Shown: positions 45 to 4,170 of the stretch, in pieces
How positions within the stretch are numbered: the stretch's first letter is position 1
How the letters are laid out: each line of letters opens with the position of its first letter
IMG/VR virus record: IMGVR_UViG_2713896777_000015
From: a virus
Taxonomy: Duplodnaviria; Heunggongvirae; Uroviricota; Caudoviricetes
Length of the DNA stretch: 4,170 bases
Direction: 5' to 3' (one strand)
Notes under the pieces: generated by a model
The model's database searches: none
What the model was told of the DNA's origin: nothing
The model's input: the letters and a program-made list of their open reading frames with translations, nothing else
Translations under genes and position numbers: made by a program

Positions 45-434
45 TCATAGCCTGCTTCTCCTGCTTCTCCTTGCCTTCCGGCACTCGCGACAGATTATGT
101 TTAGACGACTGTCGTAGCGACGTATTTCTCCGTCAGGTAATGACCAGATAAGGTCCGGATCAACCACAGCAGGTTTCTTCACCTTTGCCCTCGAGAGTTT
201 TTTGCGGGCGTTTTGCCAGTCCTTACGCGCCTGTTCAGACGGGAATAACCCGTAACCAGAGCTGTATACATCGCCACTGGCAACCAGCTCTCTGGCCAGA
301 ACGCTCATCAGATATCTTGTTGCCCCAGTTTTAGCTTCCAGTTGTCGTAACGTCTCGCGCCCACTCTGGCGTACGAGTTCCACCACCTGCCCTTTAATTT
401 TTTCCCGCTCTTCTTGTGTAAAAACTTTTGCCAC
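45..434 (-). CDS. Hypothetical phage protein (129 aa), possible winged-helix DNA-binding protein, last gene of the replication operon
   Basis: Complete ORF from the six-frame track. Start is GTG at 434, preceded by AGGAGG (revcomp of 439-444) with a 4-nt spacer. It lies 40 nt downstream of the replication initiator on the same strand. The segment LRQLEAKTGATRYLMSVLARELVASG resembles a helix-turn-helix, and the C-terminus is basic (RKARRSRRSRL). It occupies the position of lambda P / phi80 gene 14 but is too small for a lambda-P-type helicase loader. Function not established. Confidence 0.6.
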   Translation of the reverse strand: MAKVFTQEEREKIKGQVVELVRQSGRETLRQLEAKTGATRYLMSVLARELVASGDVYSSGYGLFPSEQARKDWQNARKKLSRAKVKKPAVVDPDLIWSLPDGEIRRYDSRLNIICRECRKARRSRRSRL

Positions 435-474: not shown

Positions 475-1440
475 TTATCCCCTGAAACCAGGCGGAATTT
501 CTGTATCCGGTTCAGAAATATGATTCACACAACGCTGTACAGGTGAACGTCCCAGGCGGATGACCAGTTCGTCCCATTTTTCGCGGAGTTTTGACGGGCT
601 CATGATGTTTTTTACCCAGAATTGATCTCGCTGTACCCGACCAAACATTTCGCAAATTTGTCTGTGGCTTCTGCCATCCAGCATCCGCATTGTGCGCACG
701 TCATTGGCCCAGGCTGTCCAGTTAGGCTCTTTTGGTCGCATGATCTCTCCATCGTCGCTGGCAGCCTGTTCGTAAAGGTTCACGATCCGCCCCCAAATCC
801 ACTGCGCACACGCCAAATCCTCCCTGCTACCCCACTGGCGTTTTTTCGCACTAAACACAACCGCGTCGGGGTTCCGGGTTAAAAAATCCTGTTCAGCGGT
901 CTGCTGGTCCGGTTGCGAAGCTTCCGGACGAAAAGTGTTTTTATTCTCTGTAGTAATCTCTGTTGTATTCTCTGTAAGATCATCAGGCCATTTTGACCCG
1001 ATGACATTGGGTCGTTTTGAACCAATGGAGCGTTTCATTTTGACCTCTTCCATCGTGTCATTTTGACCTGATGGAGCGGCGCATTTTAAACCGATGGATT
1101 CGCTCAATTTGCCACCATCTAAAAGCTCGCTCCCGTAGTTGATCGTGTAGAAATTGGTCATATCGCGCTTTGATTTATTGAGCTTTTCACAACGCAAAAG
1201 CCCCAGCGTTTTCAGACTTGCAAACGCGCGCTTTAACGTTGACTCTGACCAGAATGGGAACTGTTCCAGCCATTGTTCCGTTGTGTTGTAAATCCAGCGA
1301 ACACCATCACATTCCATGCCGGAATTGGTATCTCTCAACCAGTAATGCAACTGCTGCAACACAATGGCTTCATTTAAGCCAATCTTCATCGCAAGCTGTG
1401 TGTTTATAACCAGTGGGCGTTCAGCAAAAAGAAGGCTCAT
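475..1440 (-). CDS. Phage replication initiation protein (lambda O-like role) with N-terminal HTH domain and DnaT-like C-terminal domain
   Basis: The C-terminal residues VNHISEPDTEIPPGFRG closely match the C-terminus of E. coli primosomal protein DnaT (recalled as ...SEPDSQIPPGFRG). The N-terminal MSLLFAERPLVINTQLAMKIGLNEAIVLQQLHYWL is the typical HTH N-terminus of phage replisome organiser proteins. The gene body contains iterons. The track ORF starts at 1494; I prefer the ATG at 1440 (Met19) because it shortens the overlap with the upstream gene from 74 to 20 nt and has a weak GGA-containing RBS. The start is ambiguous (1494, 1440 or 1389). Confidence 0.8.
   Translation of the reverse strand: MSLLFAERPLVINTQLAMKIGLNEAIVLQQLHYWLRDTNSGMECDGVRWIYNTTEQWLEQFPFWSESTLKRAFASLKTLGLLRCEKLNKSKRDMTNFYTINYGSELLDGGKLSESIGLKCAAPSGQNDTMEEVKMKRSIGSKRPNVIGSKWPDDLTENTTEITTENKNTFRPEASQPDQQTAEQDFLTRNPDAVVFSAKKRQWGSREDLACAQWIWGRIVNLYEQAASDDGEIMRPKEPNWTAWANDVRTMRMLDGRSHRQICEMFGRVQRDQFWVKNIMSPSKLREKWDELVIRLGRSPVQRCVNHISEPDTEIPPGFRG
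943..978. repeat. AT-rich tandem 12-bp repeats (ATTCTCTGTAGT / AATCTCTGTTGT / ATTCTCTGTAAG) next to the iterons; possible DNA-unwinding element of the ori
   Basis: Seen in sequence: three consecutive 12-bp units with 1-3 mismatches in a locally AT-rich stretch immediately adjacent to the iteron block. They encode the repeated TENTTEITTEN peptide in the initiator linker. Confidence 0.45.
989..1100. repeat. Putative origin of replication: five ~23-bp iterons (core CATTTTGACC-GATGGAG) inside the initiator gene
   Basis: Seen in sequence: iteron cores begin at 989 (cattttgacccgatga), 1013 (cgttttgaaccaatggag), 1036 (cattttgacct), 1059 (cattttgacctgatggagcg) and 1082 (cattttaaaccgatgga). Spacing is 24, 23, 23, 23 bp. 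In lambdoid phages the ori iterons lie within the O gene between its N- and C-terminal domains, and that is where these sit. The repeats encode the IGSK peptide repeats in the protein linker. Confidence 0.6.
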
Positions 1441-1942
1441 AATTCCATCCAGCTTTTTGTTGGTATTGCTGTCGATACGCAAGTTTGAAAGCAATTGCTT
1501 TTTCTATAAGTTCGTCAGTTTCACGATCCACTACGGCAGGATCAGCAAAAAGCAGTCCGGACTCCACCACATCGCCATATTCTTTGTTTAACCCGGCGAT
1601 CATGTACGTGATGCTTTTTCCGTCACTAATTTCACGATACAACCTGAAATCATTAATCCGAATAGCCTCCATAATTGCAGGCACTAGCGCCGTGAACTTT
1701 TCACGCTTATCCCTGGTGTCGATAGCCTTCCAGCGTTCGAATATCTTCACTCGATTAACGCCAAGTGCTCGCTGATCAACCGCGCCACCTTCATCTGTGA
1801 CACGCTGAACATCGATGTTCGGGCGCTCTTTCAAAGCCCAGAATGCTTCAGTGATTAATATCGTCGCCTGCTCCTGTGTCATTCCTGGTCGACATATCCA
1901 GGCATCCAGAGCCTCACGAGCCTGTTCAGGAGTGATTTTCAT
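1421..1942 (-). CDS. YdaT-like protein (173 aa) in the cII-equivalent position between the cro-like gene and the replication initiator
   Basis: Complete ORF with ATG at 1942, overlapping the stop of the upstream cro-like gene by 17 nt, which is consistent with translational coupling. It sits where Rac carries ydaT after ydaS. Motifs such as RVKIFERWKA and ALVPAIMEAI fit my recollection of the YdaT family, but this is not verified by a search. Confidence 0.7.
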   Translation of the reverse strand: MKITPEQAREALDAWICRPGMTQEQATILITEAFWALKERPNIDVQRVTDEGGAVDQRALGVNRVKIFERWKAIDTRDKREKFTALVPAIMEAIRINDFRLYREISDGKSITYMIAGLNKEYGDVVESGLLFADPAVVDRETDELIEKAIAFKLAYRQQYQQKAGWNYEPSFC

Positions 1943-2230: not shown

Positions 2231-2638
2231 ATGAACGAGAAAACTTTAGGTCAACGCATTAGAGAAAGACGTAAGCAGGTAGGCTTAAGTCAAAACGGTT
2301 TAAGCAAAGCTGCTGGCGTATCTGGCTCATCAATTTCATTATGGGAAAGTGACCATACAGCCCCGCGCGGGCAAAATTTGCATCGCCTCGCCGAGGTATT
2401 GCAATGTTCACCAACTTGGATACTGTTTGGCGACGAGGACAAAACACCAGCTCCCCCTGTTTCACTCGATAGTGCCTTAGACTTATCGGAAGATGAGTTA
2501 GAGATGCTGCGTTTGTATCGCGCACTTCCTAAATCAGAGCAACAAGCACAACTCAGCGAACTCCGCGCCCGCGTTGAGAATTTTAATCGCCTGTTCACCG
2601 AGCTATTAGAGGCTCGCAAACGCAACAAGCATCAATAA
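2231..2638 (+). CDS. dicA: XRE-family HTH repressor, DicA-like (CI-type prophage repressor), 135 aa
   Basis: N-terminal HTH (QRIRERRKQVGLSQNGLSKAAGVSGSSISLWESDHTAPRGQNLHRLAEVL) followed by LQCSPTWILFGDEDK, which I recall as essentially identical in E. coli DicA. The C-terminal region (...LSELRARVENFNRLFTELLEARKRNKHQ) is also DicA-like. Start placed at ATG 2231 (Met18 of the track ORF), matching the DicA N-terminus. The upstream extension to 2180 would overlap the operator and the cro-like start. Confidence 0.85.
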   Translation: MNEKTLGQRIRERRKQVGLSQNGLSKAAGVSGSSISLWESDHTAPRGQNLHRLAEVLQCSPTWILFGDEDKTPAPPVSLDSALDLSEDELEMLRLYRALPKSEQQAQLSELRARVENFNRLFTELLEARKRNKHQ

Positions 2639-2699: not shown

Positions 2700-2760
2700 C
2701 ACTTGAGTTTTCTCATCAAAAAACCTTGACGAAAAATAATGAGAAAACTAAATTACCTCC
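2700..2760 (+). promoter_or_regulatory. Second operator copy plus sigma70-like promoter for the repressor-distal operon (pL / PdicB analogue)
   Basis: Seen in sequence: TTGAGTTTTCTCA at 2703-2715 is an exact 13-bp copy of the operator core at 2167-2179. Immediately downstream are -35 TTGACG (2726-2731), a 17-bp spacer and -10 TAAATT (2749-2754). In Qin, DicA represses the dicB operon promoter located downstream of dicA (established knowledge); this arrangement is consistent with that. Confidence 0.5.
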
Positions 2761-2830: not shown

Positions 2831-2983
2831 ATGGATACTATCGATCTTGGCAACAACGAATCTCTGGTATGTGGCGTGTTTCCCAATCAGGACGGCACGT
2901 TTACCGCGATGACGTATACCAGAAGCAAAACGTTTAAAACTGAAGCTGGCGCGCGTCGCTGGTTAGCCAGAAACACTGACTGA
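2831..2983 (+). CDS. ydfA: YdfA-like small protein (DUF1391 family), 50 aa
   Basis: MDTIDLGNNESLVCGVFPNQDGTFTAMTYTRSKTFKTEAGARRWLARNTD matches my recollection of Qin YdfA, the first gene after dicA. Start at ATG 2831 with GAGGT (2822-2826) 4 nt upstream. The track ORF's 5' extension to 2675 lacks an RBS and runs through the predicted terminator and promoter. Confidence 0.7.
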   Translation: MDTIDLGNNESLVCGVFPNQDGTFTAMTYTRSKTFKTEAGARRWLARNTD

Positions 2984-2994
2984 TGAGGTTGACG

Positions 2995-3633
2995 ATGGAA
3001 TTTAAAGATTTACCTCCTTCAATCCAGGAGATTGCAGCACACACACTTCGTCATCGTCTGAACGAACTTGAATTGGAATCGGTAACGAAAAAAGACACTG
3101 ATAATATGGCTCGTAATGTGCGCGATGCGTTTACCGGATTGTATTTCTGTGCGTCTATAAATAAACACGACTCAGAGAGTGTGGCAAATAAAATTGCAGA
3201 AACGACAGCGCAAAACATCAATACGAAACCAACGGAAGAAGAAATTGATCAGTTTGCTCATGATGCTGGTTTAAAAAACAAGAAAGAAAAATCGCCATAT
3301 GCGGGGAACATGTTTGTTTATGACAATCTCATCAGAATTCGTGGCGAAATTCCGGCGGAATACCTGGCAAGAGTCCATCAGGCATTGCTTAAAAATTTGG
3401 AAACAGAATTATTTGATGGCAACACTAACGGTTTCTTCATGGTATCAGGCCTTGAGAAAGACTGGGATGCAGAAAAACGCTGGAATGTTGCTACATGGTT
3501 ATTCAGTAACAGAGCCGCTGCACTGGAAGCTTCGGCATGTATTTGCGGCCTGTTCTTAACAGACCACAAATATAATCTGGATGTGTACAGTTATATTTAC
3601 GCTGAACACGGTCCACTCTGGATTGACTGGTAA
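2995..3633 (+). CDS. Hypothetical protein, 212 aa, no recognisable motif; AT-rich cargo gene in the repressor-distal early operon
   Basis: Long ORF (track 2983..3633). I prefer ATG 2995 because GAGG (2985-2988) lies 6 nt upstream; the alternative ATG at 2983 overlaps the ydfA-like stop (TGATG). GC content is visibly lower than the flanking backbone. I see no Walker A, HTH, HNH or other motif I can name. It sits where Qin carries ydfB-ydfC-dicF-dicB and where lambdoid phages carry accessory genes. Confidence 0.75.
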   Translation: MEFKDLPPSIQEIAAHTLRHRLNELELESVTKKDTDNMARNVRDAFTGLYFCASINKHDSESVANKIAETTAQNINTKPTEEEIDQFAHDAGLKNKKEKSPYAGNMFVYDNLIRIRGEIPAEYLARVHQALLKNLETELFDGNTNGFFMVSGLEKDWDAEKRWNVATWLFSNRAAALEASACICGLFLTDHKYNLDVYSYIYAEHGPLWIDW

Positions 3634-3843
3634 TTATAAGGAAACACCAGCAGGGCCGCGGCGACCAACAGAACGATTAAAATCAATAATGCCATTATAA
3701 AGGACATTATTTAATTTATCGTCGAATGCTGATTCTGTGAGCCTCAACTCTGAATGAGTTTTTAATAACCCTGATTGCCTGAGTTGATTTACCAGGCATT
3801 CAATCTGTTTTTCAATAAGCGGATTTCTTTTTTTGTTTGGCAT
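3634..3843 (-). CDS. Hypothetical small protein (69 aa), convergent with the 212-aa gene
   Basis: Preferred start ATG at 3843 (Met5 of the track ORF) with GGAGG (revcomp of 3849-3853) and a 5-nt spacer, a near-ideal RBS. The track start at 3855 has none. Its stop codon (revcomp of 3634-3636) directly abuts the + strand gene's TAA (3631-3633), giving TAATTA. Basic N-terminus (MPNKKRNPLIEKQ...). AT-rich. No clear promoter found in 3844-3900. Confidence 0.5.
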   Translation of the reverse strand: MPNKKRNPLIEKQIECLVNQLRQSGLLKTHSELRLTESAFDDKLNNVLYNGIIDFNRSVGRRGPAGVSL

Positions 3844-3903
3844 TTTATCCTCCATTGAGGTTCTGGGTTAAAAATGGAGACCAACACGCTGTCACGTGTG
3901 GTC

Positions 3904-4170
3904 GTGCGCCGGACACGGATAAGAATCCGGTACTGACAGTTTACTGAAAGGATATTTCCCTGAAAAGTCAGGGCATAACGCGAAAGCGTACGGCGAAGCT
4001 CTTTCCCTTAGAAGGCTTGTCGTTAGATTTCTTCGAACGTGCGCTTCCGGTTGTGGCACTCCGCGAAATGGCGCGGCGGTAAGTATGGCGGGGTTATTCC
4101 TTCCCCATTGAGGACACCGGGTTGTCAGGTTGACCATACGCTTAAGTGACAACCCCGCTGCAACGCCCTC
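3904..4170 (+). ncRNA. GC-rich highly structured segment, probably the 5' part of a structured RNA or RNA-based mobile element (truncated by the window edge)
   Basis: Seen in sequence, + strand: GTGCG at 3904-3908 (second copy 4039-4043); hairpins CGGAT-AAGA-ATCCG (3916-3929), CCCTGA-AAAG-TCAGGG (3958-3973), ACGC-GAAA-GCGT with a GNRA loop (3978-3989), CCGCG-AAATGG-CGCGG (4061-4076), GGGG-N9-CCCC (4090-4106) and a 9-bp stem GGGTTGTCA/TGACAACCC with a 19-nt loop (4119-4155). Loops are purine-rich on the + strand and pyrimidine-rich on the - strand, which favours a + strand RNA. All three + frames hit stops between 4109 and 4149 and the only - strand ORF uses a TTG start with no RBS, so the segment is non-coding. 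Identity unresolved. Confidence 0.35.

Follow-up and report, generated by a model that had tools for sequence, protein, structure and literature searches.

Polymorphic toxin-immunity systems of the CdiA-CT/CdiI, Rhs and colicin type combine a conserved N-terminal part with a swappable C-terminal part, of several unrelated types, at one locus, and carry just past the 3′ end a small cognate gene that co-varies with the C-terminal domain. Convergent genes with overlapping 3′ ends occur in prophage type I toxin-antitoxin (TA) loci such as txpA/RatA and bsrG/SR4 of B. subtilis and ralR/RalA of Rac, and in lambda the OOP RNA opposes cII. Prophage defence with cognate self-immunity can also lie beside the repressor, as with BstA/aba and the sieB/esc pair of P22. 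Here we describe a locus that shares features with each of these, in a 4,170-nucleotide stretch of viral DNA (IMG/VR record IMGVR_UViG_2713896777_000015; the whole stretch is called the window below). It consists of a gene for a 212-amino-acid (aa) protein, the target of this study, and a convergent gene on the opposite strand for a basic 69-aa protein, its partner. We tentatively favour the possibility that the two are an antagonistic cognate pair, an early-lytic effector and a partner expressed in the lysogen.

What the locus has in common with polymorphic toxin-immunity systems is the architecture set out above; it differs in that the partner sits on the opposite strand, that the proteins measure 110-212 aa and are encoded inside a phage early operon, and that no secretion or delivery, toxin or immunity domain was recognised in the cassette. 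With type I TA loci and OOP/cII it shares convergent 3′ ends that meet or overlap (by 0 nucleotides (nt) in the window and 11-53 nt in Salmonella relatives), the lack of any intrinsic terminator found between the two genes, and an opposing unit that is active while the phage operon is silent. The locus departs from type I TA loci, however, in that the opposing unit is a protein-coding gene, conserved and under purifying selection, and in that the candidate for the toxin is a 24-kDa acidic soluble protein rather than a small hydrophobic peptide. Type II TA systems do not describe it either, as the genes are convergent (3633/3634 junction) and no toxin or antitoxin domain was recognised in either protein. 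Like BstA/aba and sieB/esc, the locus lies beside an immunity region and has one component expressed in the lysogen and the other early in lytic growth, but we found no homology to these systems and no PADLOC match. In the way it works, the locus comes closest to a polymorphic effector-immunity locus in which the genes converge as they do in a type I TA locus or in OOP/cII. It nevertheless fits none of these classes: no domain of a toxin, antitoxin or defence protein was recognised, the genes are not co-directional, no hydrophobic peptide is encoded, and the partner is protein-coding.

In gene order the locus follows the Qin dicBF operon, with which it shares a DicA-family repressor, an operator-flanked promoter, ydfA, a variable slot, a leader, dicF, dicB, a ydfD-like gene, an exonuclease gene, xis and int. 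Alignment to K-12 retains two blocks at ~90%, namely ydfA with its 5′ untranslated region and the dicF leader at 3897-4170. The slot between them is filled by two small same-strand genes, ydfB and ydfC, in K-12, but by the 212-aa gene and the opposite-strand gene in the window. The target has no sequence similarity to YdfB or YdfC, and the slot genes are of no known function in either case (PMC5069750, PMC8630535). That the segment takes the place of ydfB/ydfC between two conserved flanks, and has a lower GC content, supports the suggestion of a first-pass annotation of this DNA that the gene is acquired cargo. The AT-rich island which that annotation described is real but modest (41.3% GC for the target and 37.1% for the partner gene, versus 47-51% for the neighbouring genes; the downstream leader has 54%). 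The modularity of the protein, the tail-to-tail 69-aa gene and the polymorphic cassette family described below had all been missed.

The convergent gene pair and its protein modules

The features of the pair are as follows.
2995-3633, plus strand: target open reading frame (ORF), 212 codons, ATG to TAA
2995-3189, plus strand: N-terminal helical module MEFKDLPxSIQ, residues 1-65 (N-module)
3190-3285, plus strand: polar linker, residues 66-97, with a low predicted local distance difference test score (pLDDT) and with insertions and deletions among homologues
3286-3633, plus strand: C-terminal alpha/beta module, residues 98-212 (C-module), and stop codon
3634-3843, minus strand: convergent gene for the basic 69-aa partner (PHROG 4274, 1.4e-51), whose stop directly abuts the target stop
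3844-3896, minus strand: conserved region upstream of the partner gene, common to cassette types A, B, C and F (see below), from alignment and breakpoints

The sequence comparisons confirm that these 212 codons form a genuine gene, conserved among prophages and under purifying selection. The program-made ORF list has a longer form at 2983-3633 (216 aa), whose ATG lies farther upstream and overlaps the ydfA stop; all homologues begin with MEFKDLP, the RefSeq form is a hypothetical protein of 212 aa, and a Shine-Dalgarno sequence (GAGG, 2985-2988) lies 6 nt 5′ of the ATG at 2995, which itself is 11 nt past the ydfA stop codon. The ratio of nonsynonymous to synonymous substitution rates (dN/dS), measured against three diverged copies (dS 0.4-0.8), is 0.27-0.28 overall, 0.13-0.18 for residues 98-212 and 0.40-0.56 for residues 1-65. 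The full-length protein is encoded in 75 of 80 IMG/VR loci (tblastn), and the identical protein sequence occurs on >990 contigs. The 861-bp segment 2995-3855 is covered to at least 80% in 565 of 5,426 complete E. coli genomes, in up to five places per genome, and is 100% identical in O157:H7 (including EDL933), O145, O26, O103 and O121 strains of Shiga toxin (Stx)-producing E. coli (STEC). A minority of alleles are frameshifted or truncated (P0121, P0122 and P0128; L029, L165 and L172), as expected in cryptic prophages. The full-length target was not found by tblastn among 50,697 deposited phage genomes, which gave N-module matches only; since ydfA-type operons are rare in deposited phages (19 records), this absence is weakly informative. 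The same type of search found no match to the C-module in plasmids.

Over its full length the target matches a single family of unknown function, PHROG 2151 (E = 1.8e-147, residues 1-212 against profile positions 1-212), and a hidden Markov model search of 1.84 billion representative proteins returned only 49 relatives. It has no match in Pfam, NCBIfam, PADLOC or the PDB sequences, in keeping with the first-pass annotation, which had recognised no motif, and at E <= 1 PADLOC-DB 2.0 yielded 0 families for either target or partner. The two ends of the protein have different distributions. Four further families (PHROGs 1363, 9419, 6937 and 33007) match residues 1-50/75 only, and ~40 representative proteins share only residues 1 to ~60 with the target and have unrelated C-termini; helices are predicted in this region at residues 8-24, 32-55 and 60-73. 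The C-module, conversely, is found elsewhere only in Salmonella proteins of 206-220 aa, behind an unrelated N-module, with 31-38% identity across the genera. Homology between that Salmonella N-module and the MEFKDLP module was considered and rejected (hhalign probability 1.2%). One Salmonella variant of 286 aa (P0140; L014-L016) has an XRE-type helix-turn-helix (HTH) inserted between N-module and C-module; its gene directly follows a Cox-like gene and retains the convergent partner with an overlap of 11 nt.

The C-module is modelled with the topology b-b-a-b-b-a-b and a conserved FDGxxNGxF loop (pLDDT 75, predicted template modelling score 0.70). When the PDB was searched with single sequences, or with profiles built from either module or from the partner, only chance-level matches came up, and the fold matches of the C-module are generic two-layer alpha/beta sandwiches, among which ACT-like, SUI1/eIF1, BMC shell, RNA polymerase alpha and CutA folds are equally good. 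The fold therefore assigns no activity. Template modelling (TM) scores in BFVD are below 0.5. From the ACT/ferredoxin-like sandwich the C-module differs by an extra N-terminal strand, and it has neither a Pfam ACT match nor any sequence-level ACT signal. A Prp/YsxB-like cysteine protease, suggested by weak BFVD matches (TM 0.34-0.40), was rejected, as there is no Cys or His among the invariant columns of the family; Cys182 and His205 are invariant in the E. coli copies and absent from the Salmonella relatives. Kinship with the DicA antirepressor Rem was likewise rejected, the sequences being unrelated, and no Pfam or PHROG annotation links the target to the lambdoid early-left proteins Kil, DicB, Ral, SieB, RexA/B, CIII or Gam. 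A defence, counter-defence or host-takeover activity, for which the first-pass annotation had allowed, is not established by any of these searches.

The partner gene has a Shine-Dalgarno sequence (GGAGG, 3849-3853, minus strand) and a dN/dS of 0.15-0.26. Its product has an isoelectric point (pI) of 9.7, a net charge of +3.6 and a grand average of hydropathy (GRAVY) of -0.53, and the target a pI of 5.2, a net charge of -10 and a GRAVY of -0.48. A homologue of the partner lies tail-to-tail with every C-module gene examined. The pair is found in E. coli dicBF-type prophages and in Salmonella prophages with a 70%-identical target. It extends to distant Cox-type prophages of Salmonella, with identities of 38% for the C-module and 54% for the partner; in these the genes overlap by 11-53 nt and the immediate flanks differ on both sides. 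Across the 80 IMG/VR loci the partner is present in ~72, with identical junction spacing in 70 of the 72. The partner family is confined to Escherichia and Salmonella, the same narrow range as the target, and no member was found in another context; it has no tblastn match in phage genomes and no Pfam, NCBIfam or PADLOC match. A sigma-70-like match at 3871-3842 was considered as partner promoter and rejected, because its -10 element overlaps the partner ATG; this sole match to the promoter consensus cannot drive the partner mRNA.

A family of cassette types

On comparison of sequences, target and partner look like one type in a family of swappable two-gene cassettes of E. coli and Salmonella prophages. 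We distinguish the following types.
Type A: N-module protein of 200-212 aa (the window; PHROG 2151), partner of 69 aa (PHROG 4274); E. coli and Salmonella prophages
Type B: N-module protein of 112-119 aa, partner of 64 aa (PHROG 4987); L007, L059, L072
Type C: N-module protein of 179-186 aa, partner an 80-aa zinc-ribbon protein (PHROG 10133); L017, L083
Type D: N-module protein of 201 aa, partner of 63 aa (PHROG 2605); L019, L088
Type E: N-module protein of 121 aa, partner of 66 aa (PHROG 34441); phage mEp460
Type F: N-module protein of 129-147 aa, overlapping convergent ORF of ~100 aa; includes Stx phages
Type G: N-module protein of 124 aa, no convergent partner; E. albertii and IMG/VR loci

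At least 6 C-terminal types thus stand behind the MEFKDLP module, and types A-E differ in their convergent small genes, which are unrelated to one another and abut or overlap the 3′ end. Purifying selection is evident for the partners of types B and C as well (dN/dS 0.27 and 0.16, respectively). Pfam and PHROG searches with the other cassette types and their partners gave no member of annotated function, and in the literature we found nothing published on the target, the partner or the cassette architecture, both proteins being catalogued as hypothetical.

The limits of the exchanged segment were mapped with blastn. The left mosaic breakpoint falls at ~3140-3200, in the N-module or linker, and the right one at 3831-3842, at the first codons of the partner, so that types A, B, C and F share the partner ribosome-binding site and upstream region. 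From these positions the variable unit is the C-terminus of the target and the body of the partner. The cassette does not always replace ydfB/ydfC: in prophages such as L019 and L020 it follows them.

Two further arrangements were noticed. Salmonella prophages L006-L009 carry tandem cassettes at about 5000-6500, type A followed by type B, each with its own convergent small gene. In phage ArgO145 (L002, ~5320-5444, minus strand) an unannotated convergent ORF of 57 aa overlaps the 3′ end of the type F gene and is homologous to the C-terminal part of the ~100-aa partner found in dicBF-type prophages.

Repressor control, expression and the surrounding operon

The window covers the part of a lambdoid prophage that holds its immunity and early genes, and its operon is a Qin-type dicBF early operon. 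Its other features are as follows.
45-434, minus strand: DUF977/Ren-like gene
475-1494, minus strand: O-like replication initiator gene
1421-1942, minus strand: YdaT/CII-like gene
Minus strand: P22-Cro-type gene
2165-2180: operator-like palindrome ATTGAG-TTTT-CTCAAT in the cro/dicA-like intergenic region, read from the sequence
2231-2638, plus strand: DicA-family repressor gene, 135 aa (NCBIfam NF007257 1.2e-71, Pfam HTH_3 2.2e-15)
2703-2754, plus strand: predicted PL/dicBp-like promoter, -35 TTGACG at 2726-2731, -10 TAAATT at 2749-2754, spacing 17
2831-2983, plus strand: ydfA (DUF1391), first gene of the operon (Pfam PF07151, 1.4e-29)
3897-4170, plus strand: conserved untranslated leader preceding dicF, 90% identical to K-12 Qin

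The repressor, with its length counted from the annotated start as in L001, is matched over its entire length by the DicA subfamily model NF007257. As the first-pass annotation had stated, the target follows a ydfA-like gene, which is 91% identical in nucleotide sequence to K-12 ydfA, and the operator is repeated in the operon of the target. The 13-mer TTGAGTTTTCTCA occurs exactly at 2167-2179, as part of the palindrome, and at 2703-2715 and, inverted and with one mismatch, at 2740-2752; these 3 matches compare with 0.23 expected, and 3 were reached in 0 of 200 shuffles. Two of them, at 2703-2715 and 2740-2752, bracket the promoter-like site upstream of ydfA.

Repressor control of this type of promoter has been demonstrated in relatives of the operon. 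In Qin, the antirepressor Rem lifts the repression that DicA exerts on dicBp (PMC10448788), and in CP-933P, PL933P is repressed ~100-fold by PaaR2 and YdaS (PMC8630535). At the corresponding position, loci of the CP-933P type have a homologue that is 75% identical to the target. By analogy with dicBp and PL933P, the predicted promoter would function as a PL/dicBp-like promoter and would be under the control of the repressor. In the CP-933P-type relatives (L010, L011 3550-4413) the repressor is PaaR2 and is followed by the PaaA2-ParE2 TA pair (PMC8630535), inserted between repressor and ydfA, with the same cassette downstream.

An identical cassette is present in CP-933O of EDL933, where the order is int′, recE′, DUF1482, dicB, partner, target, ydfA, repressor. 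Strand-specific RNA-seq of EDL933 under 11 conditions, given as reads per kilobase per million mapped reads (RPKM; PMC4048457, supplementary file 3), shows that in these lysogens the gene mapped to the target is essentially silent, whereas the repressor reaches high levels and transcripts of the partner are present. This pattern implies that the PL-type operon is off in lysogens and that the partner is transcribed on its own. Immunity control of the target, as anticipated by the first-pass annotation, is thus supported by the DicA-family repressor, the operator repeat, the repressed homologous promoters and the silence of the gene in EDL933 lysogens. In every context the gene lies beside the immunity switch; in the distant Salmonella prophages it stands after Cox.

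Downstream, the window ends ~13 nt short of DicF, and in the O157 genome nearest to the window dicB, a DUF1482 gene, an exonuclease gene, xis and int lie farther along the operon. The segment 3897-4170 had been guessed from the raw sequence to be an insertion sequence end or a group II intron; both were rejected, as it is the conserved dicF leader. This leader has no Rfam match and an ordinary folding energy (z = -1.1), and an Rfam search of the whole window gave no match. A block 76-81% identical to window 3974-4167 also lies 3′ of the C-module/partner pair in Salmonella Cox-type prophages (L005 8940-9142; L014 7180-7378). Elsewhere in the window, five ~23-nt iterons with the consensus CATnnnGnCATTTTGACCnGATG at 981-1096 are preceded by three 12-nt TATTCTCTGTAG repeats at 942-977; as all lie within the O-like replication gene, they are probably the prophage origin. 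A perfect 14-nt inverted repeat at 2089-2102 and 2306-2319 results from a KAAGV helix-turn-helix segment that the Cro-like and the DicA-like gene, which lie on opposite strands, have in common; it is probably incidental.

Competing readings and the meaning of the locus

In the antagonistic-pair reading that we tentatively favour, a lambdoid prophage of the Qin/DicA type would use the 212-aa protein as an accessory effector early in lytic growth. The gene, second in the ydfA-...-dicF-dicB operon, would be read from the PL-like promoter under repressor control and stay off in the lysogen. The helical N-module of the protein is common to a family of early proteins, and the acidic, cassette-specific alpha/beta C-module would give the protein specificity. 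The basic 69-aa protein would work with the target and be transcribed in the lysogen independently of PL, and the antagonism may be both physical and antisense, the small protein and a read-through antisense transcript neutralising any effector that leaks through in the lysogen. Loss of the repressor at induction would let strong PL transcription collide with and override that of the partner; the effector would then accumulate and, as lytic development proceeds, act on a target in the host or in a competitor. The pair represents one allele, type A, of a polymorphic cassette in which the outer 5′ ends (the N-module and the region of the partner translation start) are conserved and the centre is exchanged by recombination. 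The complementary charge of the acidic target and the basic partner is counted in favour of this mechanism, as are the operon context with its operators and repressed homologous promoters, the purifying selection on both genes, the conservation of the pair, the polymorphism and breakpoints of the cassette, the EDL933 expression pattern and the lack of an intrinsic terminator between the genes.

Several observations weigh against it. A promoter for the partner was not found, and no structural match assigns the target an activity. The N-module genes of type G have no convergent partner. In a set of alleles named FKG (L178, L184, L188; window 3630-3845), which make up ~10% of the family clusters, a ~165-nt internal deletion removes most of the partner gene, and a 2-nt deletion abolishes the target stop and adds the residues FKG to an otherwise intact target ORF; the partner is thus not indispensable for carrying the target, and these alleles are the chief argument against the partner being an obligatory antidote. 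Part of the co-inheritance of the two genes could come from their being physically linked between recombination flanks that are conserved. In the EDL933 data, expression was assigned to genes by Z numbers mapped through gene order only, the two copies in EDL933 make reads ambiguous, and the RPKM values are low.

Some of these points would be expected if the genes were two unrelated neighbours, the 212-aa protein an early host-takeover or anti-defence protein that acts alone and the small gene an independent moron, with co-variation arising from shared recombination flanks. The mosaic breakpoints do coincide with conserved flanks, FKG alleles and type G carry the N-module gene without a partner, and the type F gene of Stx phages has at most a truncated, unannotated convergent ORF. 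We nevertheless regard this account as rather doubtful, as the pair persists in Salmonella with both flanks different, behind an unrelated N-module (hhalign 1%) and with another region upstream of the partner. The sequence divergence of the pair is deep, and four to five partner families with no relation to one another show the same tail-to-tail arrangement. Were the genes merely neighbours, the locus would be an ordinary ORFan in a mosaic hot spot.

The roles could also be reversed, with the small protein acting in a type-specific way, by exclusion or abortive infection, on lambdoid phages that superinfect or share the host. The 212-aa protein would then be the antidote of the prophage itself, made first at induction to let the prophage out of its own block, in the manner of P22 sieB/esc or BstA/aba. 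Transcription of the small gene in lysogens in which the target is silent is consistent with such a defence with self-immunity, as is the loss of either partner in cryptic prophages without obvious cost, and a polymorphic cassette in a narrow, fast-moving family is what an arms race would be expected to produce; a block to phage entry is also known for dicB, which belongs to this operon (PMC6832061). However, stand-alone soluble proteins of 63-105 aa without a PADLOC match would be unusual defence effectors, and the conserved N-module of the antidote is left unexplained, which makes the reversed assignment unlikely in our view.

A regulatory role, with the C-module as an ACT-like ligand-binding or oligomerisation domain that modulates the lysis-lysogeny switch or dicBF expression or processing, perhaps as anti-repressor or co-regulator, is suggested by the XRE-type HTH between the two modules of Salmonella P0140 and by the constant position of the gene at an immunity switch. 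We think it improbable, since ACT has no Pfam support and is but one of the generic alpha/beta sandwiches that fit (SUI1, BMC shell and RNA polymerase alpha are as good), the window protein has no DNA-binding motif, and the target is unrelated to Rem, the known DicA antirepressor. That the gene is a functionless remnant decaying in cryptic prophages, as its frameshifted or truncated alleles, very low lysogen expression and absence from the deposited phage genomes might suggest, is hardly credible given a dN/dS of 0.13-0.28 over dS 0.4-1.0, full-length proteins in 75 of the 80 loci, a C-module maintained at 31-38% identity across genera, and the scarcity of ydfA-type operons that makes the absence from phages weakly informative.

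Returning to the antagonistic pair, a broader and more doubtful proposal is that the locus exemplifies a new class of phage conflict cassette. This would be a tail-to-tail pair of an early-lytic protein with an N-module and swappable C-module and a lysogen-expressed cognate small protein, in at least five or six non-homologous types that recombine between conserved outer 5′ ends. It may serve type-specific effector-antidote or exclusion-escape functions among competing temperate Escherichia and Salmonella phages, including those in STEC genomes rich in Stx phages. The cassette is present in roughly one in ten complete E. coli genomes, often in several copies, and shares its operon with the host-toxic dicF and dicB. 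If target and partner are indeed a cognate antagonistic pair, they would represent a new architecture for phage conflict modules, in which genes are convergent, their 5′ ends conserved and the centre swapped. This would assign a function to five or more PHROG pairs now listed as unknown at once, and would offer a handle on competition, exclusion and the control of host killing among the co-resident lambdoid prophages of pathogens.

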